From an uncultured Candidatus Saccharibacteria bacterium (GTDB lineage: Bacteria; Patescibacteriota; Minisyncoccia; Phycocordibacterales; SBAW01), in the NCBI GenBank assembly GCA_964566795.1, contig CAZMIU010000001.1, forward strand, positions 150,764 to 214,763: a stretch of DNA of 64,000 nt, in the 5' to 3' direction. Positions 14,687-61,533 of the stretch are shown here, in pieces. The notes below the pieces were generated by a model. The model was not told where the DNA came from, did not search any database, and was given only the letters and a program-made list of their open reading frames with translations. Positions within the stretch are counted from its first letter, which is position 1. Every line of letters starts with the position of its first letter. The translations under genes were made by a program, and so were the position numbers.

Positions 14687-15199
14687 TTAGTGCTCGCTGA
14701 GTGCGCAGCGGAGCTTTTTCTCTAGTCTTTCGATACGGGGCGCGAGCTCCGGATCGTCTTGCTTGTACTTATCAAGCAGGCTTATGCCGTGTATAAGGGT
14801 GGTGTGGTCCCTTTGGAGCACGTGGCCAATCTCCATAAAGTTCTTCCCCAGCACTTCGCGCATAAGATGCGCAACGACGGAGCGGATTATCACCGGAACC
14901 CTTTCCCTATTCTTCTTAAGGATGTCCTCTGGCGTAGTATCCCACTCATCAGCCACCATGCGCAGCACTTTTTTGCGCGTAATCACTCCGTGGCGCTCCG
15001 ACGGCATGACAATTTTGGGGTGCAGCTCCAGTTGTCGCTTAACCCACTCTTTTGCGGGGTCTTGGGTTTTGACTGGAGGCTCTTGAGCCTCAGGTTTTGA
15101 TGGAGCGGGCTCGGCGAGAGATGCCCCCTTCCCAAGCCGCATATGGCGCTCAAAGTGATCTTGCCTGGACAGAATCCTTACAGATAATTTTTGCTGCAT
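14687..15199 (-). CDS. Stand-alone DnaA C-terminal (domain IV) DNA-binding protein
   Basis: C-terminal 95 aa carries the DnaA domain IV signature (...VIIRSVVAHLMREVLGKNFMEIGHVLQRDHTTLIHGI...). There is no AAA+ domain. GGGAG SD lies 6 nt before ATG 15197-15199. Confidence 0.6.
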   Translation of the reverse strand: MQQKLSVRILSRQDHFERHMRLGKGASLAEPAPSKPEAQEPPVKTQDPAKEWVKRQLELHPKIVMPSERHGVITRKKVLRMVADEWDTTPEDILKKNRERVPVIIRSVVAHLMREVLGKNFMEIGHVLQRDHTTLIHGISLLDKYKQDDPELAPRIERLEKKLRCALSEH

Positions 15200-17256: not shown

Positions 17257-17281
17257 TGCAGAAGGGCACCTTCTGCAAGTG

Positions 17282-17962
17282 TTAGAGCCAGTCGATGGGG
17301 GTTTTGTCGTGCTCTTGCAGGTACTCGTTGGTTTTTGAGAACGGCCTGGAGCCGAAGAAGCCTGTGTGGGCTGCAAAGGGAGATGGGTGCGGAGATTCTA
17401 TAACACAATGCTTGCTGCGGTCTATGTGTGCGCCTTTTTGCTTGGCATAGTTGCCCCAGAGGATAAACACCAGGTGCTCGCGCTGGTCGTTGAGAGCTTT
17501 GATAACCGCATCTGTAAACTGCTCCCAGCCGCGGTGTTGGTGGCTGCCTGGAGACTGCGCCCGCACCGTAAGCGTGGCGTTGAGCATCAAAACCCCTTGG
17601 GTGGCCCAGCGCCCCAGGTCTCCGGAGTTCCGCAAGGTCGAACCTTGCGGAACAGGGCCAAGGTCATGTTCCAACTCTTTGTATATATTTTGGAGCGACG
17701 GGGGCAGGCGCACACCCTCTGGTACCGCAAATGACAGGCCGTTGGCCTGCCCTGCCCCGTGGTATGGGTCCTGGCCCAGTATCACGACTTTTACATTGTC
17801 AAAAGGTGTTAATTCAAATGCCCTAAAGATAAACTTGGGAGGCGGATACATCACTCCGGCTTTGTACTCCGCCTTAACAAACTGAACCAGTGACTTAAAA
17901 TATGGTTTGCCAAACTCCTCCTCCAGAACTTTCTTCCAGCTTGGCTCCAGCTTTACATCCAT
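17282..17962 (-). CDS. ung: Uracil-DNA glycosylase (family 1)
   Basis: GQDPYHGAGQANGLSF water-activating loop and HPSPF-like C-terminal motif. Confidence 0.9.
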   Translation of the reverse strand: MDVKLEPSWKKVLEEEFGKPYFKSLVQFVKAEYKAGVMYPPPKFIFRAFELTPFDNVKVVILGQDPYHGAGQANGLSFAVPEGVRLPPSLQNIYKELEHDLGPVPQGSTLRNSGDLGRWATQGVLMLNATLTVRAQSPGSHQHRGWEQFTDAVIKALNDQREHLVFILWGNYAKQKGAHIDRSKHCVIESPHPSPFAAHTGFFGSRPFSKTNEYLQEHDKTPIDWL

Positions 17963-17964
17963 AG

Positions 17965-18282
17965 CTACCTCAAAAATCCCTCTTCGCGCAATAACTTGGT
18001 CTTACGCGCCTGCCCGCCGCGGTTGTAGTCGCCTATGCGGCCATCACTGCGCACCACGCGGTGGCACGGGATGCCGGGCCGGTAGTTGTGCGACATAATA
18101 GTGCCCACGGCGCGCGCGGCACCCGGTTTGCCTGCGCGGCGCGCCACCTCGCCATAGGTCATGGTTGTGCCTTTGGGGATATTCGCAACTATCGCGTACA
18201 CCTTGGTAGCAAAAGGCGTCTCAAATACTTTTTCGGCCTTCTGCGGCTTTGTGTTAGAAGAGTGTGCCGGTGCTTTCCTCAT
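17965..18282 (-). CDS. ogt: Methylated-DNA-protein-cysteine methyltransferase, short form with DNA-binding/active-site domain only
   Basis: Active-site PCHRVV motif and surrounding helix-turn-helix. 105 aa, so the N-terminal domain is absent. Confidence 0.75.
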   Translation of the reverse strand: MRKAPAHSSNTKPQKAEKVFETPFATKVYAIVANIPKGTTMTYGEVARRAGKPGAARAVGTIMSHNYRPGIPCHRVVRSDGRIGDYNRGGQARKTKLLREEGFLR

Positions 18283-19102
18283 ACGCTATTTTCTTATTTT
18301 TAACAGGAGCAGATTCAGGGATGTCTACTTTGCGCTGTGATGATTGCTTGCGCTCACGTAGCGCCTTCCCCGCAGCTTCGCGGTAGCGGCAGTAGTCGCA
18401 GTCCGCGCCTGCGGCGGGGATCTCTTGGCTGTCGGCGCACTCTTTAAGGGCCAGCAGGGTCGGCTCCACCCAGGAGGTGTCGCCCTTGTGGGCGATGAGC
18501 GTCATTTCAAACTCGAGTTTGGCGTCAAACGCAGCCGGCTCCTTGCTTGCGTTTGCATACACCCAGTAGCCTGTGTCGGATACCTTAAAGCCGTTCTGGC
18601 GCAGGAGCCACTGATAGGTCTCCATTTGTCGCTTATAGCCGTCGTGCCACTCCTCGTCGAGGCTGTCTATTTTCTTGTCCTTGCTGGTGGATTTGTAGTC
18701 GACGACTATCAACTCCCCTGCCGGGTTTACCCATATATCGTCCACCGCGCCCGCTACCGTAAATCCTGTTGCCGGATGCTTGTACTCCACACCCTTGAAG
18801 TTCTCGCGCCACACATCAAGCTGCGGGTGGCTAAACGGCACCGCGTCTACGCCGTACTCGTCGCACAATGCATGCGCCCTGCCCTCTGCGCGCAAAGCAT
18901 CAAACTCTTTCTTAAGCAAAGCGTCTACCGCCGAGTTGAGGTTAAACGGGAAGCCCGGCGGGCGGGCCACACCCAATACATTGTCTACATAAAAGCAGCG
19001 CGGGCACTCCATAAAGAGCGCGATTTTGCTGCGCGAGAGGCGCCATTTGGGCCCGCCATAGTTCCAGTCGGGTTTGCGGTTTGGTTTATAGAAAAGGCTC
19101 AC
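18254..19102 (-). CDS. PD-(D/E)XK nuclease, Cas4/RecB-nuclease-like with four Cys (putative Fe-S)
   Basis: VVDYKSTSK plus downstream E/K-type PD-(D/E)XK core, with an N-terminal CPRC and a C-terminal CDYC. The start overlaps the ogt-like gene by 29 nt. Confidence 0.55.
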   Translation of the reverse strand: MSLFYKPNRKPDWNYGGPKWRLSRSKIALFMECPRCFYVDNVLGVARPPGFPFNLNSAVDALLKKEFDALRAEGRAHALCDEYGVDAVPFSHPQLDVWRENFKGVEYKHPATGFTVAGAVDDIWVNPAGELIVVDYKSTSKDKKIDSLDEEWHDGYKRQMETYQWLLRQNGFKVSDTGYWVYANASKEPAAFDAKLEFEMTLIAHKGDTSWVEPTLLALKECADSQEIPAAGADCDYCRYREAAGKALRERKQSSQRKVDIPESAPVKNKKIAYEESTGTLF

Positions 19103-19134: not shown

Positions 19135-19596
19135 CTATTCTGCCTTGCCATAGCGGCGCCGCAGGCGGTTCTCGAGCTTGGAGAGTATCGTAAAGACAAG
19201 GAGGCCCAGCACTGTAGAGGCCAGCGCCACCGCATAGTAGCCAAACCCTGCCGCCATGCCCACGGCCGCAACAAGCCAGATGCCAGACGCAGTGGTTATC
19301 TCAGCCGCATGCTCGGTGCGCAGGGCAAGGCCGGAACCTATAAAGCCTATACCGATGACTATCGAGGCGGCAATCTGGAGCGGGTTAACGCCAGTAAATG
19401 AGGTCAGCTGGTAGCTGGCCACAAGGCCTGCGACGGTAAAAAGAGCCGATCCTAGCGAGACCAGTGCATACGTGCGCATGCCGGCATGCTTTCCTGCAAG
19501 CGAGCGCTCAAGGCCCATGCACGCACCAAGAATAACGGCAACAACCAGACGGGTAATGATCTCGACCTCTATACTCGACAGTGTAAGTCCTAGCAT
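19135..19596 (-). CDS. mgtC: MgtC/SapB family membrane protein
   Basis: LVVAVILGACMGLERSLAGKHAGMRTYALVSLGSALF is the MgtC family signature. Confidence 0.8.
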   Translation of the reverse strand: MLGLTLSSIEVEIITRLVVAVILGACMGLERSLAGKHAGMRTYALVSLGSALFTVAGLVASYQLTSFTGVNPLQIAASIVIGIGFIGSGLALRTEHAAEITTASGIWLVAAVGMAAGFGYYAVALASTVLGLLVFTILSKLENRLRRRYGKAE

Positions 19597-19616: not shown

Positions 19617-20240
19617 TTACAGCGCCCTAAATGTTGCCCACAGCGGCCCGCCGTCGGCGTCTGCCATCGGTTTGTCTGCGTTAAGCGAGAAAATGCGGTC
19701 ACCGTTGTCTACCGATAGCCCAACAATATAGGACTGATTGGGCTGCATATTGCGCAAAAGACCCACGCTCCCCTTTGTGTTGCCTGAGAAGTAGAGCCTG
19801 GCGCCGAGCGCGTTCCCCGGCTTGCCCTCACGCGACACATACACAACAACCCACGTGGGTTTTGAGAGGTAGAGGCTTTGTATGACAACGCTGTGCCCGG
19901 CCTTTTGGTCTAGAACGACGAGAGCCTGGGGCGTGTCCGAGGCTGCCTTGGCTTGTGTTGTCGTACTTACTGTGTCCGCAGCCGCTGCGAGGGCATGTGC
20001 AGACGCGCGGCTTTGATGTGTCTTGGCCCAGGCAGTGGCCAAAAGTGCCCCAATGATAATGCCCGCAACAAGGACAGCGGCGTACGCGGGCGCCTGTGTT
20101 GCATACGCCTTCTTGCTGCTTGGAAAGGTTGAGGCAACCTCTGCGTGTGCGTGCGGGGGGCTGTTTTGCGCCGGCAAAGAATCCGCCCGTGGTGGGGCGG
20201 GCGGCAAAGACCACGGCAATCGGGGTTTGTCGTCCGGCAT
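19617..20240 (-). CDS. Hypothetical secreted or membrane-anchored protein
   Basis: ORF 19617-20369. The likely start MPDDKPRLPW at 20238-20240 avoids overlap with the next gene. There is one TM or signal anchor. Confidence 0.4.
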   Translation of the reverse strand: MPDDKPRLPWSLPPAPPRADSLPAQNSPPHAHAEVASTFPSSKKAYATQAPAYAAVLVAGIIIGALLATAWAKTHQSRASAHALAAAADTVSTTTQAKAASDTPQALVVLDQKAGHSVVIQSLYLSKPTWVVVYVSREGKPGNALGARLYFSGNTKGSVGLLRNMQPNQSYIVGLSVDNGDRIFSLNADKPMADADGGPLWATFRAL

Positions 20241-20280
20241 AGGTACGGTAGTGATGAATATAGGAGGAAGAGCTCTGCCC

Positions 20281-21129
20281 CTATTGTACCGTGCCCCTGC
20301 CGTCAGACAATACTCCCGCCTCCTCGAGCACAGAAGCGACCTTTTGCGATGACACGCCCACATCAGCAAGCACCCGGGGGTTGGCCGCTATCTCGCTGCA
20401 CAGGACAATGCGCTTCTCAAGCAATGCCAGCTTTTCCCTCCGACTAAGCGTTGTAAGCGCGGTTATGGGGTAGAGCCCCGCCGCCGCTATGCGGTCATGC
20501 AGGGTGTGGCCGTCGGGCTCATCCCAGCTTAAGAGGTCGAGCCCGGCACATGCAGCATAATGGGTCGCGTGCGTTGTAAACTTGGTGTTAGTTACAAGCA
20601 GCCCGAGCACCACTGTCTTGTCACCGCCCCTTTTTGCGGCATGTGCGGCGCGGATGTCATCCATGCGCGCTTTGACATATAAAGCGGTCTTAAGATCGGT
20701 TTTAAAGCCGGGGCTGTTATGGAACTTGGCCTCCACATATAAAAGCTCATTGCCCTTTTTGGCGACAACATCTACCTCATGCTCGACACACCCGCCCCGT
20801 ATTACCTTGTCTGTCGAGGCCTCCCATCCCTCTGCCCTCAGCAGCGCCGCAATGTATGTCTCAAACGGAAAGCCGGATGGTCCAAAGTCCCACACGGCGC
20901 GTTTGAGCGAATAGCGGGCAGCAATGCCGTGGCGGTGCGCGCGCAGCCTGGCAAAGGCACGACGGTAAATTTCCTGCGTGGTAATGCCGTCAAAAAGCTC
21001 GAGCTCCACCTCTCCCGCAATTTCCTGCGCAGTGGTACGGTCAGCACCCGCGCGGGCGAGCGACCCCAAGAGCTTGCGGTCATCAAAAGTCTCGCGCGTG
21101 CCGTCGGCCTTGGTTATAAGCAGAGCCAT
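20281..21129 (-). CDS. ATP-cone domain fused to Mrr/restriction-endonuclease-like (PD-(D/E)XK) domain
   Basis: N-terminal ITKADGTRETFDDRKL... is ATP-cone-like. The central VEHEVDVVAKKGNELLYVEAKF is an Mrr_cat-like nuclease core. Confidence 0.55.
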   Translation of the reverse strand: MALLITKADGTRETFDDRKLLGSLARAGADRTTAQEIAGEVELELFDGITTQEIYRRAFARLRAHRHGIAARYSLKRAVWDFGPSGFPFETYIAALLRAEGWEASTDKVIRGGCVEHEVDVVAKKGNELLYVEAKFHNSPGFKTDLKTALYVKARMDDIRAAHAAKRGGDKTVVLGLLVTNTKFTTHATHYAACAGLDLLSWDEPDGHTLHDRIAAAGLYPITALTTLSRREKLALLEKRIVLCSEIAANPRVLADVGVSSQKVASVLEEAGVLSDGRGTVQ

Positions 21130-21134
21130 TGCTC

Positions 21135-22188
21135 TTAGTATACGATTGATTCTTTTATTACTCCCCCGCCAATACAGCGGCCATGTTTATAAAGCACCAG
21201 TGACTGGCCCGCGGGCACCCAATGCGGCTTGTGCAGCGTGACCGTGTTTGCCTCTGCATCAAGCTGTGCCTCGATAAGCTCCTGACGGTAGCGGTAGCGT
21301 GCCATGTATGTGCCGCTGTAAACCTCGCCTATCCAGTTTGTATCGGTTATCTCAACTTTTGTCAGCGTTGCGCCTTGAGGGAACTTGCTTGGCGATACGG
21401 TTATTGTGTTTGCCTCGATATCTTTGGCGATTACGTAGTTGGGCACAGCGTCGGGTGCCTGTGTAGCCAACTCAAAGCCGTGGCGCTGCCCCATGGTGTA
21501 GAGCGCAGCGCCCCGGTGCACTCCCACAACCTCGCCCGCCTCGTTTAACACGCTGCCCGGCATGGGAGTAAGCTCGCGCTCGAGCATATCTGTTATTGAT
21601 ATTGGTCCCAAAAAGCACAGGCCCTGGCTGTCTTTGCGCCCTGCATTAGGGAGACCGAACTTCTGCGCCAGCGTGCGGACTTGCGGCTTGGTGAGGTGTC
21701 CTATCGGGAACAGTACGTGCGCAAGTACATCCTGAGGCACCGCCCACAAAAAGTAGGTCTGGTCTTTGTCTATATCTTTGGACACATACATAAGGCCGTC
21801 TTTAACTTGCGCGTAATGGCCAGTGGCCACAAACTCGGCGCCTTGCGCGCGGGCCCAGTCATAAAAAAGCCCGAACTTAATCTCTTTGTTGCACAGCGTG
21901 TCGGGGTTGGGAGTATGGCCCTGTGCAAACTCCTTTATAGATGCATCAAACACCTTTTGCTGATACTCTCGCGAGAGGTCCACCTCCACAAACGGGATTT
22001 TAAGATGCGCTGCCACGCGCATGGCGTCTATGCGGTCTGCCCCGGCAGTGCACGGGTACCCCTCGACCGTTATTTTTATAAAAGCGCCCACCACCGCATA
22101 GCCCTGTTGTTGCAACAAAGCGGCCGAGGTGGCGGAGTCTACCCCGCCGGAGAGTCCCACGTATACTGTGCCTTTAGGAGTGGTTATC
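21135..22188 (-). CDS. mnmA: tRNA-specific 2-thiouridylase MnmA
   Basis: PP-loop VGLSGGVDSATSAALL and conserved catalytic Cys region. The ORF track extends to 22337, but the N-terminal 50 aa are low-complexity and overlap a terminator. Start set at GTG about 22186-22188, which is uncertain. Confidence 0.85.
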
Positions 22189-22211
22189 ACACGTCTGTTA
22201 TAGCGCGGATG

Positions 22212-22245
22212 CGCAAAAAGAAAAACCCCGGCGTAAGCCGGAGTC
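22212..22245 (-). terminator. Hairpin plus T-run downstream of mltG
   Basis: Minus strand: ccggcttacgccgg hairpin followed by ggtttttcttttt. Confidence 0.5.
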
Positions 22246-22254
22246 TTTTGAGGA

Positions 22255-23310
22255 TTAATCGAAGTAGGGGTCCAGGTACTTCTTTTTGTTGGCCAGGTGC
22301 TGCTCGTATGTGGTCGCATAGTGGAAGTTGCCGTCAAGGTCCGAGAGGAAAAATATGTAGTTGCTCTTAATCGGGTTAAGCGCTGCTGTTATAGAGTCGA
22401 GCCCGGGGTTATTTATGGGGCCGGGCGGCAGACCCTTGTACTTGTAGGTGTTGTACGGCGAGTCAATCTTTAGGTCCTCAAGCGTTACCTCAAAGGTGTT
22501 CTTGCTGATGATGTAGGGGAACACCGCGTCTACCTGCAGCGGCATACCAATAGATATGCGGTGCCACAAGACGCCTGCAATTTTTTGGCGGTCTGCGCTC
22601 TTGTTGGCCTCCTTCTCGAGTATCGAGGCCATGGTAAGAATCTCCTCTTCCGTATGGCCCGATGCGTCTATCTGCTTGGCGAGCTTCGTAAGTTTGGTAT
22701 GGAATGCGTTGGTAAATACAGAGAGCACGGCCTCGGTGGTATCCGCCGGCATAAAGAAGTACGTGTCAGGGAACAGGTACCCTTCCTTGCCTTCGGTTGC
22801 CGCGAGGAAGGCCTTCTGGTTAAAGTCTGGGATTTTGTCATACAGGATGCGCGCAATGTCCTTAACCGTGCTGCCCTCGGGGATCATGACCCTGACGGGC
22901 GTTGTCTCAAAGTCGCCGGAGACGACCCGCGCCGCCACCTGTATCATGTTTTGCTTGCGGCCAAAATAGTACACGCCGGACGGCACAGACCGGTCGTCGC
23001 CTACAATGCGCGCAATCTGCCTAAAGGTCCACCCGTTGCGCACAACCCCGCGCTCCTCAAGTATCTCCCCCACTTCCTTGAGCGACGAGCCCTTGGGGAT
23101 AGTAACGTATGAGCCCGACGGGAAGTACGACAAAGGCGCCAGTGTCAGCGAGTATGCTATCCAGCCGAGTACCAGTATGCCGCCAATGGTAACCACGGCA
23201 TGCTCAACGACCCTAAGGCCCGTGTACCAGCTCCACCCGCGGTGGCCCCAGTGTATAAATGTCGGGAAGTGGATATGGAACTTTTCTATATGGTGGGGCT
23301 TTAAAAGCAT
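22255..23310 (-). CDS. mltG: Endolytic murein transglycosylase MltG (YceG-like)
   Basis: N-terminal TM, YceG domain with conserved IPEG and catalytic E region. Confidence 0.8.
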   Translation of the reverse strand: MLLKPHHIEKFHIHFPTFIHWGHRGWSWYTGLRVVEHAVVTIGGILVLGWIAYSLTLAPLSYFPSGSYVTIPKGSSLKEVGEILEERGVVRNGWTFRQIARIVGDDRSVPSGVYYFGRKQNMIQVAARVVSGDFETTPVRVMIPEGSTVKDIARILYDKIPDFNQKAFLAATEGKEGYLFPDTYFFMPADTTEAVLSVFTNAFHTKLTKLAKQIDASGHTEEEILTMASILEKEANKSADRQKIAGVLWHRISIGMPLQVDAVFPYIISKNTFEVTLEDLKIDSPYNTYKYKGLPPGPINNPGLDSITAALNPIKSNYIFFLSDLDGNFHYATTYEQHLANKKKYLDPYFD

Positions 23311-43903: not shown

Positions 43904-43974
43904 CGGGATGTGGTATAATGGTATTACGTACGCTTCGGGTGCGTATAATCCGAGTTCGATTCTCGGCATCCCGA
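43904..43974 (+). tRNA. tRNA-Pro (anticodon CGG)
   Basis: C1:G72, discriminator A73, anticodon loop UUCGGGU, T-loop TTCGATT; 71 nt. Confidence 0.75.
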
Positions 43975-44010
43975 CTAAGTTTCCGACAAAATAAAAGAGG
44001 GTGTGTAGCC

Positions 44011-44037
44011 GGACGTGAGTTCGGTTCTCGGCATCCC
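44011..44037 (+). pseudogene. tRNA-Pro 3'-half duplicate (T-arm plus acceptor)
   Basis: gagttcggttctcggcatcccgact differs from the intact tRNA 3' end at one position. It lies 36 nt downstream of the intact gene. Confidence 0.4.
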
Positions 44038-44057
44038 GACTAGTTTAAGATCCGTTT

Positions 44058-51355: not shown

Positions 51356-52687
51356 TTACACGAGAAAGTTTTTGCGCATTTTTTTGCGGTTAAAGGTGAT
51401 TGCGAAGCGGTGGGCCTCGGCATTGGCCAGCAAGATGTCGCGCTCCTTGTCTTTAATAACGTTACGGTCCCCTGCTATAGAGCGCGGGCGGTGCTTTTCG
51501 TCCTTAACCACTCCCACAACAGGGATCTGCATGCCACACTCTCTAAGTATTTTTGTGGCGGCGTTTATCTGTGCCTTGTGGCCATCTACCACAATGACCT
51601 TAGGGTACGGCCACTCAGGGTGGCCCAAGCGGCGCGACAACACCTCTTTAAGCGAGCCCGGGTCGTCTCCGCCCTTGGCGTCTTTGATATTGAACTTGCG
51701 ATACTCCATCTTGTTGGGCAGGCCGCCCTCTACAACGGTCATAACACCCACATGCCCCGCACCTGCCAGGTGCGCAATGTCGTACGCCTCGATGCGGCTG
51801 CCCTGCGCGGCATTGGGGCCGCGGTACTCGTCCTTTATAAGAGAGACATCCTGTATGTGGGTAAGGCCAAAGAGTTGTTCTTTGAGCCTGCCCGCCTCCT
51901 CAAAGCGCTCTTCTCTGGCGGCCGCCTTCATCTGCTTTTCTATCGAGCTTACGAGTTGCTTCTTGCGGCCCTGGAACAGCAGCACAATGTGGCGGATTGT
52001 CTTTCTGTACTCAGTTTTACCCACCGCGCCCGAGCACACCCCCGGGCACAGGCCAATAGAGGCATCAAAGCAGGGCTTACCCGAGTTGGGCACGCACGTG
52101 GTGCGGTACGGGAAAATCTTTCTAATGAGCTTCATCGCCAACTGCAATTGCAACCCATGCGGGAATGGACCAAAAATGTGGGCATATTCTGGCGCAGCAA
52201 AGTTCTGCAAAAGGGAGTTGGGGTCGTGTTCATCTCTCCCTTTTGCGGAAGCTTTTTGCGCCAGATCTCTGCCGCGTATTACCAAGACCCGCGGGTAGTC
52301 CTCTTTGGGTATGACTACGTGGTTAAAGCTCTTGTCGTCTTTAAGGTCGGTGTTGTAGTCGGGCCTGTGGGTGCGTATCAATGAGGCCTCCAAAAGCAGG
52401 GCCTCCAACACCGAGTCGGTCTGGCGAAAGTCTATCGTGTGGGCCTTATCGAGCATCTCAACCAAGAGAGGCCCGCGGGTATCCATAAGGTCTTTGGCAA
52501 AGTAGCTGCGCACCCTGTCGCGCAGGCTGGTGGCCTTGCCGATGTAGAGCAGCTTTTTATTTTTACCCAAAAAGAAGTACACCCCGGGTGCATCCGGCAG
52601 CCCCGACGCTTTGGTCGGGATCCCGTCCTCGCCTTGCGAGCGTCGGGACTTCTTCAAGTACCGTTTGTTGAACTGCTCAAGATTCAT
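51356..52687 (-). CDS. uvrC: Excinuclease ABC subunit C, short form (GIY-YIG plus UvrBC-interaction plus RNase-H-like domain; no C-terminal HhH)
   Basis: GIY-YIG motif GVYFFLGKNKKLLYIGKA...RVRSY; 443 aa. Confidence 0.85.
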   Translation of the reverse strand: MNLEQFNKRYLKKSRRSQGEDGIPTKASGLPDAPGVYFFLGKNKKLLYIGKATSLRDRVRSYFAKDLMDTRGPLLVEMLDKAHTIDFRQTDSVLEALLLEASLIRTHRPDYNTDLKDDKSFNHVVIPKEDYPRVLVIRGRDLAQKASAKGRDEHDPNSLLQNFAAPEYAHIFGPFPHGLQLQLAMKLIRKIFPYRTTCVPNSGKPCFDASIGLCPGVCSGAVGKTEYRKTIRHIVLLFQGRKKQLVSSIEKQMKAAAREERFEEAGRLKEQLFGLTHIQDVSLIKDEYRGPNAAQGSRIEAYDIAHLAGAGHVGVMTVVEGGLPNKMEYRKFNIKDAKGGDDPGSLKEVLSRRLGHPEWPYPKVIVVDGHKAQINAATKILRECGMQIPVVGVVKDEKHRPRSIAGDRNVIKDKERDILLANAEAHRFAITFNRKKMRKNFLV

Positions 52688-52696
52688 ATAGGTAGT

Positions 52697-55276
52697 TTAG
52701 CGCCCCTTAAGTACCTTCTTAAGATACCTGCCCGTATGCGAGTTTTTGTTGTTTGCAACCTCCTCCGGTGTGCCCTTGGCCACCAGGGTGCCGCCGCCCA
52801 CACCGCCCTCCGGGCCAAAGTCCAAAAGATAGTCAGACGACTTGATGATATCCATGCTGTGCTCGATAAGCACCACCGAGTTGCCTGCCTGTACCAGCTT
52901 GCCCAGTATGTCCAAGAGCTTGCGCACGTCCTCGTAGTGGAGCCCCACCGTGGGCTCGTCCAACAGGTATATGGTCTTTTGCAGGTGCGGGCGGTACAAC
53001 TCCGAGGAGATTTTGACGCGCTGTGCCTCGCCACCGCTAAGCGTAGTGGCAGACTGCCCCAGCTTTAAGTACCCGAGCCCCACCTCGTCCAGCGTTTTAA
53101 GCCTGTCATATATAGCCGGGATGTCGTTAAAGAACTCAAGCGCCTCCTCAATAGTCATCTCCAAGACGTCGTAGATATTCTTTTTCTTATACTTAACCTC
53201 CAGGGTCTCTTTGGTAAAGCGCTTGCCATTACATACATCGCAGGTCACATACACCGTGGGCAAAAAGTGCATCTCCACCGCAATAGTGCCGTTGCCCTCG
53301 CAGGTCTCGCAGCGCCCGCCGCCCCTCTCCTGCTTAACATTAAAGGAGAAGCGGGACGCCTTCCATCCGCGTGCGCGGGCCTCTCCTGTTTCGGCAAACA
53401 ACTCGCGGATAAACGCAAAGGAACCCGTGTAGGTGGCGGGGTTACTTCTAGGCGTGCGGCCTATGGCCGACTGGTCTATAAGTATCGCGCGAGAGAGATG
53501 CTCGCTGCCCTCAAACGAGGCGGCGTTAAAGACCTTATTGGAGCGGTAGCGCTTATCAAAGCGCGCCTTCAGGTTTTCGTACAGGATCTCGTAGAGGAAG
53601 GTCGACTTACCCGAGCCCGACACGCCGGTCACGGTAACAAGACGCCCCAGAGGGATATCTACGGAGAGGTTTTTGATATTAAAGGCTTTGCCGCCCTTAA
53701 TCGATATCTTGCCCTTGTCCTTCTGCCGGCGCTCCTCGGGCACCTCTATGGATGTCTCGCCGCGCAGGTAGCTTAAGGTGAGTGAGCCGCTGTCGTTTTT
53801 CTTGGCGGTCAGCAGCTTGTCGAGCCAGTCGGCCACCACCACCTCGCCTCCGTGCACCCCGGCACCGGGTCCTATGTCTACCAGGTAGTCGCCGGAGTAG
53901 ATCGTATCTTCGTCGTGCTCCACCACAATGATGGTATTGCCCAGGTCGCGCAGGTTAAGGAGCGTCTTGATAAGGCGCTCGTTGTCGCGCTGATGCAGGC
54001 CAATGGTCGGCTCATCAAGCACATACAAAGCGCCCACAAGCCCCGAGCCCAGCTGGGAGGCCAGGCGGATGCGCTGTGCCTCGCCGCCGCTAAGCGTGTT
54101 GGCACGGCGCTCAAGCGTAAGATAGTCGAGCCCCACATCGAGCATAAATTTAAGCCGCGAGGTAATCTCCTTGATAACCACCTTGGATATCTCCTCCTCT
54201 TTTTTGGTCAGGTCCAGGAGCTCAAAAAAGTCGTATGCCTCCTGTATAGACTTCTTGGTGACATCTACAATGTTTGTTTTATCGCCAAGCCACACGTTGA
54301 GCGCCTCCGGGCGCAAGCGCGCACCATGGCACACCGGGCAGGGCTCATCCGAAAAGAGGTGCTTGGTACCCAGGCCGTTGCAGGCCTGGCACGCGCCGTA
54401 CGGCGAGTTAAAGCTAAAGAGGCGCGGCTCCACCTCAGGGAACGAGAATCCGTCATACGCGCACATAAACTTGGCCGAGACAAGGCGCTCCTGCCCGTGC
54501 TCCTCGATGCGCACCAGGCCCTCCGACTCGCTTAGGGCGCGCTCCACAGCCTCGCTCAGGCGCTCGATGGCAGCCTTTTTGTCCGACTTAAACTCCGAGA
54601 CTAGTATCTCGTCGACAAGTGCATCAATATCGTGCTTTTTATGGCGGGCCAGGTCTATCCTCTCGCGCAGGCTGATTATCTTGCCATCTACACGCGCACG
54701 CTCGTATCCCTTACCCAAGAGATCGTATAAAAGTTGGTAGTACTCGCCCTTGCGGCCCACCACGACCGGCGCATAAATGCGCACCACGTCGTCTTGTATA
54801 TCGACACCCATAACCTTACGCGTCTTTTTAGGTGCCGCTTTGGTGACCGTCTCTATAATGCTCTCGATAATCTCCTGGTTGGAGTGCTTTTTTATCTCGC
54901 GGCTGCACACCAGGCAGTGCGGGTGGCCCACACGCGCATACAAAATACGCAGGTAGTCATATATCTCTGTGATGGTCGCCACGGTGGAGCGCGGGTTGTT
55001 GGAGCGTGACTTCTGATCAATTGAGATTGCCGGCGAGAGACCCGTTATCTCCTCCACATCGGGCTTTTGCATCTGGCGCAAAAACTGGCGCGCATAAGCG
55101 CTTAGCGACTCAATATAGCGGCGCTGGCCCTCGGCAAAGATTGTGTCAAACGCCAACGACGATTTGCCGGAGCCTGAGAGCCCGGTAAAGACGACCATCT
55201 TGTCCCGCGGGATTTTGAGGTCGACGTTTTTGAGGTTGTGGGTTTTGGCACCCTTTATATGGATATGGTCTTCCAT
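52697..55276 (-). CDS. uvrA: Excinuclease ABC subunit A
   Basis: Two ABC ATPase modules ([22 protein letters not shown]) and zinc-finger Cys clusters. Start taken at [17 protein letters not shown] (ATG 55274-55276); the ORF track extends to 55333. Confidence 0.95.
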
Positions 55277-55443
55277 GTTTTTGTTAGTGTGCATCTCTTG
55301 TAAGAAACGCGGTACACAAATGTCTGTGGACAACGATACAGCCCCGCCGATATTCCGGGGGGTGGTCTATGTGCACACGCAGAGTATATCACGAGATGGG
55401 GATATCATAAAACACCAGCAAAAGCGGGACTATACTTACACTA

Positions 55444-55634
55444 TGAATAAACAAATGTTCATCAAGGTCGCAACGGTCGTGTTTAGTATTGTTGCAGCTG
55501 TGCACTTGTACCGCGCGTTTAATGACCTGCCGGTACTCTTTAACACCTGGGTAGTACCGGCGTCCCTGTCGTGGTTTGTGGGCCTGTTTGCGGGTCTCCT
55601 GGCCTATAGCGGGTACCGCTTCTGGAATAAGTAA
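55444..55634 (+). CDS. Hypothetical small membrane protein (63 aa; alternative start at 55320)
   Basis: [22 protein letters not shown]... has two hydrophobic helices and is followed by a long imperfect hairpin at 55655-55700. Weak SD. Confidence 0.3.
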
Positions 55635-55850
55635 GGCAAAGTAAAAGGCCCCCGCTCACCAGCCCTTGAGAGGTATCTGGTATTGAGCGAGGGCCTTTAT
55701 CGTGCAGATCGCGACTACGGCGCGCAGCACAGATTGTATAAAAGAGCGGTGGACGCCGGATACAGGACTAATGACATGCCTTACCAGTCGGGGCTGCGGC
55801 TGGTTCCGACGTCCATAGCTACTATAACACCCTATGGTATATGATGTCAA

Positions 55851-57125
55851 CTAGTGGCCGTGACCTGCCTCTATTGCACCATCGAATACTGTCTTGTCTG
55901 CGTCGCCTGAGACATGCAAGACACCCCATGCGCCCCGGTCAATGCGCGCCAGTGCGTGGTCCACAAGGATATAGTTGCCCGGGTAATCGAGCGCAATGTC
56001 CACAGCCGCGGCGCCGCCGGCCGGCACCAGGGTGGTCTGCACGCTCCGGGCAGGAGCACTCACGAGGTCACCCTCACGAAAGACGCGGTCAAATATCTCG
56101 CCTATCACATGGAAGCTCGACACGAGGTTTACTCCCCCGTTGCCGACATAGAGCCGCGCTGTTTCCCCCACCCGTGCGCGCATCACGTTGCTGCTGGTCG
56201 AGGTGAGTGCGCCGGTGCGGCCGTTAAACACGATGTATTGGGGCCTTGAGTCCATCATCGCCTTTGTGTCCATAAGCTGGAGACCCTCGCGGCCCAGGGC
56301 GCCCGCGGTATAAAACTCACCCTGCATCACGTAGTACTCATGATCGACTTTGGGCAGGCCTTCCTTGGGCTCGACAAGTATCATCCCGTACATGCCGTGG
56401 GCCATGTGGTTGGCAACATTGGGATGCGCGCAGTGATAGACAAAGAGCCCCGCGTGCATAGCCTTAAATGAAATCGTCTTACTCTCGCCCGGCGCCACTA
56501 TAGTAGCCGCGGCGCCGCCTCCTGGACCTGTAACCGCATGGAGGTCAATCGAGTGGTGATGAAGGCTGGTCGGGTCATTGTGCAGTGTTAGTACGACAGT
56601 ATCGCCCTCGCGGACCCTGAGCATCGGCCCCGGTACTGTACCGTCAAATGTCCAGTAATTAACAGTGACGCCCGGTGCCATTTCAGCCACCACCTCTTTG
56701 GCCGTCATCTCTATATGGACAGTAGAGGGTGTTGTGCGCACAATGGGCGGCGGCACGTCGCCCGGGTCGCGCGCTATGTCTGCGACCCGCTCAAACTGCC
56801 CAAAGTTAGAAAAGAATCCGAACACGTTTTTAAAAGGGAGTATCGGGCCCTCGGAAGGGCCATATGTCTTGAGGAAAAACGGATACTCAAACGCATGCGG
56901 CAGTCCATTGGGGACATAGAAAAACACCGACACCCCTAAAAACACCGCAAGCAGGGCCAGTGCCATGGCGCGGGAGGTATGATGCCGCACCGCCAGATAT
57001 ATAAAGAGTGCCGCAAACACAAACGCCACCAAAAGGCCTATAGTCTGCACCCCATACGCCCATATATATGAAATGAGGGTGAACATATACACATTGTACG
57101 CCATGTTTTGTAACGACAAATCCAC
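55851..57125 (-). CDS. nirK: Copper-containing nitrite reductase (NirK-type two-domain multicopper oxidase) with N-terminal 2-TM anchor
   Basis: Type-1 and type-2 Cu ligand motifs HNDPTSLHHHSIDLH and CAHPNVANHMAHGMYGM, with two cupredoxin domains. Confidence 0.8.
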   Translation of the reverse strand: MDLSLQNMAYNVYMFTLISYIWAYGVQTIGLLVAFVFAALFIYLAVRHHTSRAMALALLAVFLGVSVFFYVPNGLPHAFEYPFFLKTYGPSEGPILPFKNVFGFFSNFGQFERVADIARDPGDVPPPIVRTTPSTVHIEMTAKEVVAEMAPGVTVNYWTFDGTVPGPMLRVREGDTVVLTLHNDPTSLHHHSIDLHAVTGPGGGAAATIVAPGESKTISFKAMHAGLFVYHCAHPNVANHMAHGMYGMILVEPKEGLPKVDHEYYVMQGEFYTAGALGREGLQLMDTKAMMDSRPQYIVFNGRTGALTSTSSNVMRARVGETARLYVGNGGVNLVSSFHVIGEIFDRVFREGDLVSAPARSVQTTLVPAGGAAAVDIALDYPGNYILVDHALARIDRGAWGVLHVSGDADKTVFDGAIEAGHGH

Positions 57126-57187
57126 AGGACAGGAGCCTAAAGCAGGAGTATGGTAGGTGCAGGAACCCTGGTCTTTGGAGACGCCAC

Positions 57188-57613
57188 ATGCCAGAAGTTA
57201 TCGCTAAAGTGCCCCTCTCGCCGCAAGGCAGGGCCATACTCGAGTTTGAGGACGACGACTTTACACAGCAGGTTGTAGAGCAAGGCCTCTCGGTCCTGCG
57301 GGCCTACGACCACCTCCACGAGATGAAGCTCTTTATCCTCCTGTGCGCTTCGCGCCCGGGAGAGCCTGTGCCCGTACCACCCGAGATAGACAGCAAGGTG
57401 CTCCACCCCTTTCTTGAGTGGGAGAAGTTCGATGGGTTCTGCGCGCAGCGGCTCAAGGGCACGCTCAAGCATATCCCCCACGACACGCCCATGACAGGCA
57501 GGGAGCGTCTGCACATGCTCGAGCAGGCGCGGGCGCAGTACGGCAAGCACTTTGATGAGGCGCTGTGGGAGCGCGGGCTCCCGGTATGCACGCTCACGTT
57601 TGTCGCGCACTAA
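57188..57613 (+). CDS. Hypothetical protein (141 aa)
   Basis: Balanced composition, GGAG 8 nt upstream, followed by a strong plus-strand terminator. The overlapping minus ORF 57137-57664 is R/L-rich antisense-like. Confidence 0.45.
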   Translation: MPEVIAKVPLSPQGRAILEFEDDDFTQQVVEQGLSVLRAYDHLHEMKLFILLCASRPGEPVPVPPEIDSKVLHPFLEWEKFDGFCAQRLKGTLKHIPHDTPMTGRERLHMLEQARAQYGKHFDEALWERGLPVCTLTFVAH

Positions 57614-57620
57614 CAAAAGA

Positions 57621-57650
57621 AGAGGCGGGGTATCCCGCCTCTTTTTCTTT
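57621..57650 (+). terminator. Rho-independent terminator agaggcggg-gtat-cccgcctct plus TTTTT
   Basis: Perfect 9-bp stem followed by a T5 run on the plus strand. Confidence 0.6.
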
Positions 57651-57732
57651 GCCTCAGCATACAAACTGATCTGTCTATCGGTTTAAGAGCAACGCATAAC
57701 AGTGGGTTACGCTACGCGCGACTATAGCACGC

Positions 57733-61533
<3,801 letters not shown>

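Follow-up and report, generated by a model that had tools for sequence, protein, structure and literature searches.

The locus described here raises the question of whether three closely spaced minus-strand genes, encoding a Cas4-like nuclease, a short MGMT-domain protein and a uracil-DNA glycosylase (ung), work together as a dedicated module for unconventional repair or against foreign DNA, as had been predicted. On balance, the trio is probably a set of ordinary, independently acting genome-maintenance genes that end an inherited run of Paceibacteria genes, and the block to which they belong is best read as lineage-specific and vertically inherited within Paceibacteria (Adlerbacteria/Kaiserbacteria-like Patescibacteria). 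In what follows, the window is the whole 64-kb stretch of DNA that was analyzed. The genes concerned are:

21135..22337, minus strand: MnmA gene (Pfam), part of the upstream block
20281..21129, minus strand: ATP-cone+Mrr_cat gene (Pfam), part of the upstream block
19617..20369, minus strand: DUF7282 gene (Pfam), part of the upstream block
19135..19596, minus strand: MgtC gene (Pfam), part of the upstream block
18254..19102, minus strand: nuclease gene, 282 aa, GTG start
18254..18282, minus strand: 29-nt overlap of the nuclease and MGMT genes, from ORFs and sequence
17965..18282, minus strand: MGMT-domain gene, 105 aa, with PCHR encoded at 18069..18058
17282..17962, minus strand: ung, 226 aa, final gene of the minus-strand run

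All three genes lie on the minus strand and are transcribed in the order nuclease, MGMT, ung. The tight packing and the 29-nt overlap of the original prediction were both confirmed: the MGMT ATG (18282) precedes the nuclease stop codon (TAA, 18256..18254) by 26 nt, and 29 nt are common to the two ORFs. Position 17282 is indeed the ung stop, but the order given with it, in which MGMT follows ung, had to be reversed, as the MGMT stop codon (TAG, 17967..17965) precedes the ung start (ATG, 17962) by 2 nt. No alternative in-frame MGMT start was found upstream of the conserved domain, and the overlap is therefore real; the next candidate start within the ORF is a GTG at Val28, and a protein begun there would lack F24 and A25, which are invariant. 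The N-terminus of the nuclease (MSxYYKPNRKPDW) agrees with those of aligned homologues. The trio belongs to an unbroken series of minus-strand genes that begins at about 35.4 kb and ends at 17.3 kb, where ung is convergent with an M13 peptidase gene. Such packing is normal for the window, where the median gap of the 47 same-strand gene pairs is 17 nt, with gaps of 10 nt or less in 19 and overlaps in 11 (all from crude longest-ORF calls). Consensus scans for a promoter or terminator specific to the trio did not rise above shuffle expectation, and a 9-bp hairpin at 17277..17257, just past the ung stop, lacks significance (z -0.95). Co-transcription of the three genes is plausible.

Comparison of gene neighborhoods around the nuclease in 80 species genomes revealed a conserved order of MnmA, ATP-cone/Mrr, (DUF7282), MgtC, nuclease, MGMT and (ung), with the trio at the 3' end. 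MGMT lay next to the nuclease in 58 of the 80 loci, a frequency not above that of MgtC (62) or ATP-cone/Mrr (66); the corresponding counts were 63 for MnmA, 39 for DUF7282 and 39 for ung. All nine loci of this sample without the upstream synteny also lacked MGMT. In a broader metagenome sample, where the nuclease is 48-75% identical to that of the window and loci were counted if both flanks were readable, Mrr and MGMT occurred together in 12 loci, Mrr without MGMT in 6 and neither in 26, while MGMT without Mrr was not seen (0 loci). In both samples, then, MGMT adjoins the nuclease only inside the larger syntenic block, and block and nuclease are kept without MGMT in at least 13 species of the first sample and 6 loci of the second. 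Because adjacency of MGMT is nested within block synteny and does not exceed that of MgtC or Mrr, there is no sign of a dedicated module: co-conservation of the three predicted members is not above background, and it does not extend outside the block. On the refuting condition set with the original prediction, the proposal of a dedicated module for the three genes does not stand. In many species the nuclease gene keeps a stable chromosomal place between the housekeeping genes MnmA and AlaS, and three related contexts annotated with Pfam showed no mobile-element genes within the block. The most persistent neighbor of the nuclease is the ATP-cone/Mrr-fold protein.

Beyond the block, no neighbor recurs among 52 non-syntenic nuclease loci (the largest neighbor cluster comprises 3 loci), and MGMT and ung are absent from eight more remote nuclease contexts: Bacteroidota-like (assigned from a Por_Secre_tail neighbor gene), Chloroflexi, two phage-like contigs and four IMG/VR contigs. 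A viral origin was considered and rejected: in IMG/VR, relatives turned up on these four contigs only, where they are 55-57% identical and neither MGMT nor ung is present. Among long relatives and family representatives, no fusion of the nuclease to an MGMT or UDG domain was found; the domains attached to long relatives are NUDIX, HD_4, TIR+GYF and DUF2779.

The junction between nuclease and MGMT is itself tight in relatives and persists to an unusual degree. Among 55 evaluable species the genes overlap in 42, recurrently by 17-50 nt or by 4 nt, and are separated by 20 nt or less in another 8; the pair also survives loss of MgtC and DUF7282 (e.g., loci L061, L062, L068, L108 and L125). A junction maintained in this way makes co-transcription, and possibly the translational coupling that had been proposed, plausible. 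The overlap and close spacing would arise from genome compaction and polycistronic expression, and any coupling of translation between nuclease and MGMT may be one of expression and not of mechanism. The locus illustrates how the overlap of compact CPR genes can mimic functional coupling; as a module it has little importance, being a lineage-specific synteny of known types of repair gene.

The identities originally given to the three genes were borne out by Pfam and NCBIfam profile scores. When classed by HMM, the nuclease matches PF12705 (E 3.6e-16, 60.3 bits, cut-off 22) and falls below the threshold of the curated cas4 model TIGR00372 (28.1 bits, cut-off 65); PF01930 (DUF83) gave no match at E<=0.01, and the Cas4 models of PADLOC match it weakly (best E 1.9e-8, 32.8 bits). 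Searches of PDB sequences with the nuclease alone or with a family profile returned chance matches only; the fold search alone was informative. An AF2 model (pLDDT 81.6) was compared with the PDB by Foldseek and matched Cas4, RecE, MGME1, the AdnAB nuclease, Exo5 and lambda exonuclease; for matches with E<=0.001, TM scores were 0.32-0.47 (E 4e-6 to 1e-3), and those for Cas4 were only 0.34-0.42. The conserved motifs were examined in an alignment of nuclease homologues (A1) and a divergent alignment of the nuclease family (A3):

18995..19006, minus strand: C33-P-R-C36, first half of a four-Cys metal site, both Cys invariant in A1 and A3
18692..18742, minus strand: catalytic core D121-D122 ... 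D135-Y-K137 (RecB motifs II/III), invariant or nearly so in A1 and A3
18614..18628, minus strand: Q159-x3-Y163 (RecB QhXXY motif, as defined in PMC4176176), Q159 and Y163 conserved in A1 and A3
18389..18400, minus strand: C235-D-Y-C238, second half of the four-Cys site, invariant in A1 and A3

Four Cys had been attributed to the nuclease; there are six in all, and the four that are invariant across the family are C33, C36, C235 and C238. In representatives clustered at 50% identity the two CxxC pairs are about 200 aa apart. The Cas4 pattern is 1+3, with one N-terminal and three C-terminal Cys (C…CxxCx5C; PMC4176176), and where Cas4 bears the last of these, five residues after CxxC, the nuclease has Ala (residue 244). 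Relative to CRISPR Cas4, one C-terminal Cys ligand has thus been swapped for a second N-terminal one, and total length is greater by about 80 aa. The CxxC…CxxC arrangement is a putative metal site that could hold an Fe-S cluster or equally Zn. At least 8000 database proteins are related to the nuclease at E<=1e-5, and identity is 60-84% among the best 200 relatives listed; the protein has been inherited vertically and is strongly conserved. It is a Cas4-like PF12705 enzyme with a RecB fold of the PD-(D/E)XK type, and not a bona fide Cas4. By analogy with the CRISPR-associated (DUF83) enzymes SSO0001 and Pcal_0546 (PMC4176176), it would be expected to act as a 5'-to-3' ssDNA exonuclease.

In CPR genomes, solo Cas4-like genes are known to be enriched and to descend vertically. 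Like the solo-Cas4/PF12705 nucleases of Hudaiberdiev et al. (2017; PMC5704561), the nuclease is stand-alone, vertically inherited and located outside CRISPR loci, and it shares with them the RecB-fold PD-(D/E)XK core, QhXXY, four conserved Cys and a function that is uncharacterized. It differs from them in its CxxC…CxxC arrangement, in a disordered tail ending in LF or LG[LI] in Paceibacteria, and in its location in a block with ATP-cone/Mrr and often with the MGMT gene. Two features mark this very large and strongly conserved subfamily of solo Cas4-like proteins: a Cys site re-wired to 2+2, and an LF/LG[LI] peptide conserved at the C-terminus. The tail comprises the following features:

18257..18367, minus strand: disordered Lys/Ala/Pro-rich tail, about residues 246-282, with pLDDT <50 for residues 265-282
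18271..18257, minus strand: tail end T-G-T-L-F, a candidate beta-clamp-binding peptide, compared with the tails of relatives

The linker is not conserved and varies in length, the whole tail after the second CxxC measuring 17 to 60 aa. Among 191 unique relatives, 115 end in [T/Q/N]-x-[Q/T/S]-L-F, 33 in x-x-L-G-[L/I/F] and 10 in LF plus one residue, making 158 in total. The first position of the LF tails is polar (Thr 64%, Gln 16%, Asn 13%), and the second is small (Gly, Ala or Ser) and not aliphatic. The 'QxxLL' endings of three loci (L039, L040 and L057) may also be variants of the motif. Bacterial beta-clamp motifs have been described as QL[SD]LF, QφxLF and QφxLxL, an example being QLVLGL of Pol IV (PMC9690074; bioRxiv 10.64898/2026.05.27.728225). 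The nuclease tail resembles these in its placement at the extreme C-terminus after a flexible linker and in its Leu-Phe or Leu-Gly-Leu/Ile ending (compare Pol IV), but the match to the published penta- and hexapeptides is partial: it covers positions 4-5, whereas the Gln at position 1 and the aliphatic residue at position 2 are replaced mostly by Thr and by Gly/Ala/Ser. Judging from the tail sequence, the flexible tail ending …(T/Q)xxLF probably tethers the nuclease to the beta sliding clamp, and such tethering would serve replication-associated processing of ends or flaps. If the peptide binds DnaN, it would give the solo Cas4-like genes of small-genome bacteria, which have long lacked an explanation, a first definite clue to their function.

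Presence of the tail motif goes along with adjacency of MGMT, which was seen in 51 of 58 loci with the motif and 4 of 16 without it (Fisher p 2.7e-6, uncorrected for phylogeny). In tree order, the losses are grouped in a small number of clades, and the motif occurs without MGMT in at least 8 lineages. The idea that the tail is a docking peptide for the MGMT protein was rejected, since the correlation reduces to few independent events on the tree, and it is treated here as phylogenetic inertia.

The MGMT-domain protein was predicted to be a 105-aa protein with only the C-terminal PCHR domain, and this is the case: PF01035 is its sole domain (E 1.8e-29), starting at residue 22, and there is no N-terminal domain. 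It scores 82 bits against TIGR00589 (cut-off 46) and far under the cut-offs of the equivalog models for full-length AGT (NF007626 and others). Its relatives are 82-116 aa long and likewise carry PF01035 only, preceded by a variable extension of 0-25 aa. Residues Y43, R57, N66, P72-C73-H74-R75, Y86 and E101 are invariant in the protein and 20 relatives, and correspond to Y114, R128, N137, PCHR145, Y158 and E172 of hAGT; PCHR is present in 52 of 52 evaluable MGMT ORFs next to the nuclease. According to an AF2 model (pLDDT 82), the protein would fold as a complete AGT C-domain, with TM scores of 0.64-0.73 against the C-domains of MtOGT and hAGT and against S. pombe Atl1, the last of which is the top Foldseek match (3gva, E 1.6e-5, 44% identity). 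Like Ogt, Ada-C and hAGT/MGMT, it has the PCHR motif, Arg finger, pocket Tyr and Asn, and Glu-His-Cys relay; it is about 40% identical to solved AGT C-domains, but those AGTs have two domains and it has one. In its single domain and size it resembles the ATLs (S. pombe Atl1, E. coli YbaZ/eAtl and V. parahaemolyticus Atl), and profile score (60 bits) and fold similarity do not separate it from them. However, ATLs are lesion flags for NER in which the active-site Cys is replaced by Trp or Ala, whereas in this protein the Cys, like the rest of the catalytic relay, is invariant; an assignment to the ATLs was rejected on this ground. The protein is a predicted one-domain O6-alkylguanine-DNA alkyltransferase (mini-AGT), and its complete suicide-alkyltransferase set does not fit the mere lesion binder originally envisaged. 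The human AGT C-domain alone is reportedly inactive without its N-domain. In this clade AGTs normally occur as stand-alone C-domains that retain the full catalytic set, which bears on whether activity requires the N-domain.

A functional partnership of nuclease and mini-AGT is the likeliest of the alternatives, although we consider it improbable. It would make the pair a counterpart of the archaeal AGT-EndoV/ATL-EndoV fusions or of the ATL-to-NER hand-off: the one-domain AGT would find and flip O6-alkylguanine, or be alkylated by it, and the nuclease, possibly tethered to the clamp, would incise or resect lesions not cleared or remove the DNA-bound alkylated protein, with ung as a loosely associated third repair gene. 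Such a partnership would fit the overlap or close abutment of the two genes in 50 of 55 species, the retention of the pair where MgtC and DUF7282 are gone and the (phylogenetically uncorrected) association of the tail motif with MGMT, and a second protein could supply the role of the AGT N-domain, given that the human C-domain is reportedly inactive by itself. There is precedent in AGTendoV/ATL-EndoV, which are covalent fusions of an AGT C-domain and EndoV (Kanugula et al. 2005, reviewed in PMC10779285), and for a dispensable N-domain (PMC10779285). The locus is like AGTendoV in that an AGT C-domain without N-domain is linked to a nuclease, but the link is one of gene adjacency and overlap, and the nuclease is an unrelated one of RecB fold. 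Against partnership stand the lack of any locus with MGMT and without Mrr, an adjacency no commoner than that of MgtC or Mrr, the species and loci that keep block and nuclease without MGMT, the lack of nuclease-MGMT fusions among family representatives, the wide occurrence of the nuclease family without MGMT (phage-like contigs included), and the few independent events behind the tail correlation. The full AGT catalytic set is also kept, so that the suicide transferase needs no partner nuclease. A narrower form, in which a clamp-tethered nuclease and a translationally coupled mini-AGT constitute a two-protein system for alkylation damage and a non-fused bacterial analogue of AGT-EndoV, is more doubtful still; the mini-AGT would recognize or cross-link at O6-alkylguanine and the clamp-bound nuclease would process the surrounding DNA. 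The organisms that this last proposal concerns have minimal repair repertoires.

Further from the evidence is a defense island, in which the nuclease and ATP-cone/Mrr would degrade invading DNA while ung and MGMT act on phage DNA that is modified or contains uracil, and we regard this as quite improbable. The weak PADLOC Cas4 matches, the persistence of the Mrr_cat neighbor, relatives in phage-like contigs and PHROGs, one relative fused to a TIR domain, and the published speculation that solo Cas4 of small genomes may serve defense or repair could all be cited in its favor. Defense islands are patchy and mobile, however, whereas the nuclease shows high identity among the best 200 relatives listed and a stable position between MnmA and AlaS, in a block without mobile-element genes in the three related contexts; PADLOC is blank for MGMT and ung and marginal for Mrr (ZorD/Mrr, E 0.003), and curated models call ung and MGMT canonical repair enzymes. 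It is scarcely credible that the nuclease is a genuine Cas4 of CRISPR adaptation, with cas1/cas2 and an array elsewhere in the genome, even though some homologues are annotated as 'CRISPR/Cas system-associated exonuclease Cas4 (RecB family)' and the best PDB folds include Cas4 from Cas4-Cas1-Cas2 complexes. The score of 28 bits against a curated 65, the failure of PF01930, the 2+2 Cys, the low TM scores and the 52 non-syntenic loci without a recurrent neighbor all argue against it. As originally described, the gene is also stand-alone: the 64-kb window holds no CRISPR-like repeat, there is no cas1/cas2 nearby, and no cas genes were found in the three Pfam-annotated related contexts.

Under the preferred reading of independently acting genes, each protein would perform a familiar task. 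The solo Cas4-like nuclease would act as a metal-dependent exonuclease, its fold stapled by the four-Cys site (Fe-S or Zn), and the minimal AGT would flip the lesion and pass the alkyl group irreversibly to Cys73 without an N-terminal domain. The family-1 UNG would start base-excision repair of uracil. It passes the equivalog HMMs (NF003589, NCBIfam, 320 bits, cut-off 223) and has the water-activating loop GQDPYH and an HPSP loop, but in the co-directional ung lineage of the clade, as here, the intercalating Leu of HPSPLS is replaced by Phe (HPSPFA). The gene is loosely attached to the nuclease/MGMT block, lying within 6 kb of the nuclease in 39 of the 80 loci and abutting MGMT in about 12, and the neighboring ung genes of these loci fall into two lineages in two orientations. 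That two distinct ung lineages adjoin MGMT hints at selection for the clustering of repair genes.

The three genes are transcribed in the order nuclease, MGMT-domain protein, uracil-DNA glycosylase (ung), as read from their ORFs and sequence:

17282..17962, minus strand: ung, 226 aa
17965..18282, minus strand: MGMT-domain protein, 105 aa
18254..19102, minus strand: nuclease, 282 aa

The nuclease stop codon (18256..18254) falls within the MGMT ORF, which confirms the predicted overlap of 29 nt, and the ATG at 18282 is the sole usable MGMT start, since starting at the next possible in-frame codon would delete invariant domain residues. The original prediction also described a tight junction at the ung stop; the spacing is indeed tight but the orientation was wrong, the real junction being the MGMT stop, 2 nt and then the ung ATG. 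Same-strand neighbours, identified by Pfam, are the genes for MgtC, a DUF7282 protein, a protein with ATP-cone and Mrr_cat domains, and MnmA, while a convergent M13 peptidase gene comes after ung. The longest ORF for the DUF7282 protein (19617-20369, minus strand) begins with TTG and shares 89 nt with the ATP-cone/Mrr gene; the real start is probably downstream, around MPDDKPRLPW. The N-terminal region of this protein is rich in proline, and a transmembrane stretch is predicted.

By crude ORF calls, nearly the whole window is coded on one strand. Genes in the 47 same-strand pairs are separated by a median of 17 nt; 19 of these pairs have gaps of ≤10 nt and 11 overlap. The trio closes an unbroken minus-strand run from 17282 to about 35400 (~18 kb, gaps ≤91 nt). 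Given this median and the 11 of 47 overlaps, tight packing is a genome-wide property and not specific to the trio. Scans for consensus promoters and terminators revealed nothing specific to these genes, and a hairpin 3' of ung was not significant.

Homologues of the nuclease come from Candidatus Adlerbacteria, Kaiserbacteria and Paceibacterota, all Patescibacteria, and the family is large: a threshold of E≤1e-5 admits at least 8000 proteins, and there are 281 clusters (50% identity) at E<1e-30. Its description as Cas4-like could be made more exact with HMMs: it matches PF12705 (PDDEXK_1) at 60 bits, has no Pfam match to PF01930, reaches just 28 bits with the curated Cas4 model TIGR00372 (cut-off 65), and has weak matches to PADLOC Cas4 models and PHROG exonuclease families. 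No solved structure was detectable by sequence search; the AF2 model (pLDDT 81.6) matches the folds of Cas4, RecE, MGME1, the AdnAB nuclease, Exo5 and lambda exonuclease; the TM scores are modest (0.32–0.47 among matches at E≤0.001). Cas4 proteins have one N-terminal and three C-terminal Cys, such as C64, C200, C203 and C209 of Pcal_0546 (PMC4176176), whereas the relatives of the window nuclease conserve Cys at 33, 36, 235 and 238; there is an extra Cys beside that of the N-terminal 'CPR', and Ala (residue 244) occupies the last ligand position. This 2+2 variant (CxxC…CxxC) could hold an Fe-S cluster or Zn.

A helix follows the second CxxC, and beyond it lies a low-confidence, Lys/Ala/Pro-rich linker whose length varies from 17 to 60 aa. 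Among 191 unique relatives, the tail ends in [T/Q/N]-x-[Q/T/S]-L-F in 115, x-x-L-G-[L/I/F] in 33, and LF plus one more residue in 10. Such an arrangement, a few invariant residues at the very end of a linker that is not itself conserved, is typical of docking motifs, and the tail is a putative one. Bacterial clamp-binding motifs are the pentapeptide QφxLF and the hexapeptide QφxLxL (e.g., QLVLGL of Pol IV), in which positions 1, 4 and 5 are most important (PMC9690074; bioRxiv 10.64898/2026.05.27.728225). Two of the tail variants parallel these forms, but the fit is imperfect at positions 1 and 2, and tethering of the nuclease to the clamp is a candidate role about as likely to prove right as wrong.

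The MGMT protein has a clean PF01035/TIGR00589 domain; lacking the N-terminal domain, it does not pass any of the full-length Ogt and Ada equivalogs. Residues Y43, R57, N66, P72-C73-H74-R75, Y86 and E101 are kept in 20 relatives, and we take their counterparts in hAGT to be Y114, R128, N137, PCHR (C145), Y158 and E172. AGT C-domains and Atl1 of S. pombe fit the AF2 model (pLDDT 82) equally well. The conserved catalytic residues and the fold match point to a protein with ATL architecture and predicted AGT chemistry. In the parts of a review that we consulted, the AGT N-domain is described as not strictly needed and C-domains fused to EndoV are reported, with no mention there of free-standing, Cys-containing C-domains (PMC10779285). 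The third gene passes the family-1 equivalogs for ung (320 bits, cut-off 223).

Gene neighborhoods were compared in a first sample of 80 loci, one genome per species, with nucleases 60–83% identical to that of the window.

Genes found with the nuclease in the first sample
ATP-cone/Mrr: 66/80 loci
MnmA: 63/80 loci
MgtC: 62/80 loci
MGMT: 58/80 loci
AlaS: 44/80 loci
ung: 39/80 loci
DUF7282: 39/80 loci

MGMT is absent from all nine loci that lack the upstream synteny, and from another 13 that keep the upstream block, in two of which ung directly follows the nuclease. The genes downstream in MGMT-less loci are mutually unrelated (M16 peptidases, P-type ATPase, FGAM synthase, HD protein). In the wider sample, 80 metagenome loci picked around a distant family member (nucleases 48–75% identical to the window's, median 57%), the downstream flank could be read in 62 loci, 17 of which have MGMT, and the upstream flank in 52, 21 of which have Mrr. 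Where both could be read, 12 loci have Mrr and MGMT, six Mrr only, 26 neither, and none MGMT only; no recurrent neighbour occurs among 52 loci outside the block. MGMT and ung are both missing from eight further remote contexts: a Bacteroidota-like contig (labelled from a Por_Secre_tail neighbour gene), a Chloroflexi contig, two phage-like contigs and four IMG/VR contigs. The 120 closest MGMT homologues listed are 87–124 aa long (all but one ≤119 aa), each with PF01035 as its single domain, and three of three looked up (60–64% identical) lie in the same block. By these counts, the nuclease and MGMT are linked through inheritance of a single syntenic block; an unrelated membrane protein is tied to the nuclease at least as strongly, and the pairing is never re-formed elsewhere. 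Ung is only loosely attached, being next to MGMT in about 12 loci, separated by 0.3–2.5 kb of other sequence in about 17, and convergent in seven.

Most likely, the three genes encode independent enzymes that would be made from one long transcript, with the overlap at most coupling translation of the nuclease and MGMT protein. The main rival, a partnership of nuclease and mini-AGT resembling the AGT-EndoV fusions, we consider improbable, at perhaps one chance in five. In its favour, the two genes keep a persistent junction that in most cases overlaps (among 55 evaluable pairs, the overlap exceeds 4 nt in 33, typically 29–35 nt, and equals 4 nt in nine; eight have gaps of ≤20 nt). Against it, they are neighbours only within the syntenic block, no fusion proteins were found, many loci keep the nuclease but not MGMT, and the MGMT protein appears catalytically complete. 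The original prediction of an unconventional repair or anti-foreign-DNA module fails as a three-gene unit by the test it had itself set, co-conservation in relatives, MGMT adjacency being confined to the inherited block; a defence reading is unlikely. So is a CRISPR reading: as had been predicted, the window lacks an array, no CRISPR-like repeat being found in its 64 kb.

The gene types are already known, as are solo Cas4-like genes in CPR genomes, where they are over-represented and evolve vertically (PMC5704561). As far as we found, the literature holds no description of the specific block, the 2+2 Cys variant or the conserved C-terminal peptide, which are refinements on known gene types.

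The nuclease's most persistent neighbour is the ATP-cone+Mrr_cat+AF1548-like_C protein (20281-21129, minus strand; 66/80 and 21/52 loci), a nucleotide-sensing domain joined to a restriction-fold nuclease amid housekeeping genes; it directly adjoins the nuclease where MgtC and DUF7282 are missing (e.g., loci L102, L108, L125 and L143). In the phage-like contigs L093 (4001-4768) and L094 (4001-4774), nuclease relatives of 46–52% identity neighbour HNH/NUMOD4 homing endonuclease, Gp3-like, RtcB and Macro-domain genes, and the related proteins P0123, P0150, P0171 and P0188 are fused to NUDIX, HD_4, TIR+GYF or DUF2779 domains. Two ung lineages occur beside MGMT (window gene 17282-17962, minus strand; loci L012, L034, L035, L037, L041, L062, L068). 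In 30 of 32 loci of the co-directional one, to which the window gene (HPSPFA) belongs, the intercalation loop reads HPSPF[SA], Phe standing where Leu is canonical. The convergent one is only ~50% identical to it and has the canonical HPSPLS in 7/7. This pattern suggests displacement of ung in situ, along with an unusual Leu-to-Phe change of the wedge residue.

The window's sole short-range direct repeat (43952-44042, plus strand) comprises two 26-nt copies 65 nt apart, GAGTTCGATTCTCGGCATCCCGACTA; these resemble the T-arm and acceptor ends of tandem tRNA genes and not CRISPR. A 170-aa protein at 14687-15199 (minus strand) consists solely of the DnaA C-terminal helix-turn-helix domain (PF08299) and has a conserved location in relatives (L087). 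ORFs at 51356-59847 (minus strand) resemble uvrC (443 aa, short), uvrA (878 aa) and uvrB (704 aa), based on N-terminal sequence only; if these calls are correct, nucleotide-excision repair is present, which bears on any idea of an ATL-like hand-off.
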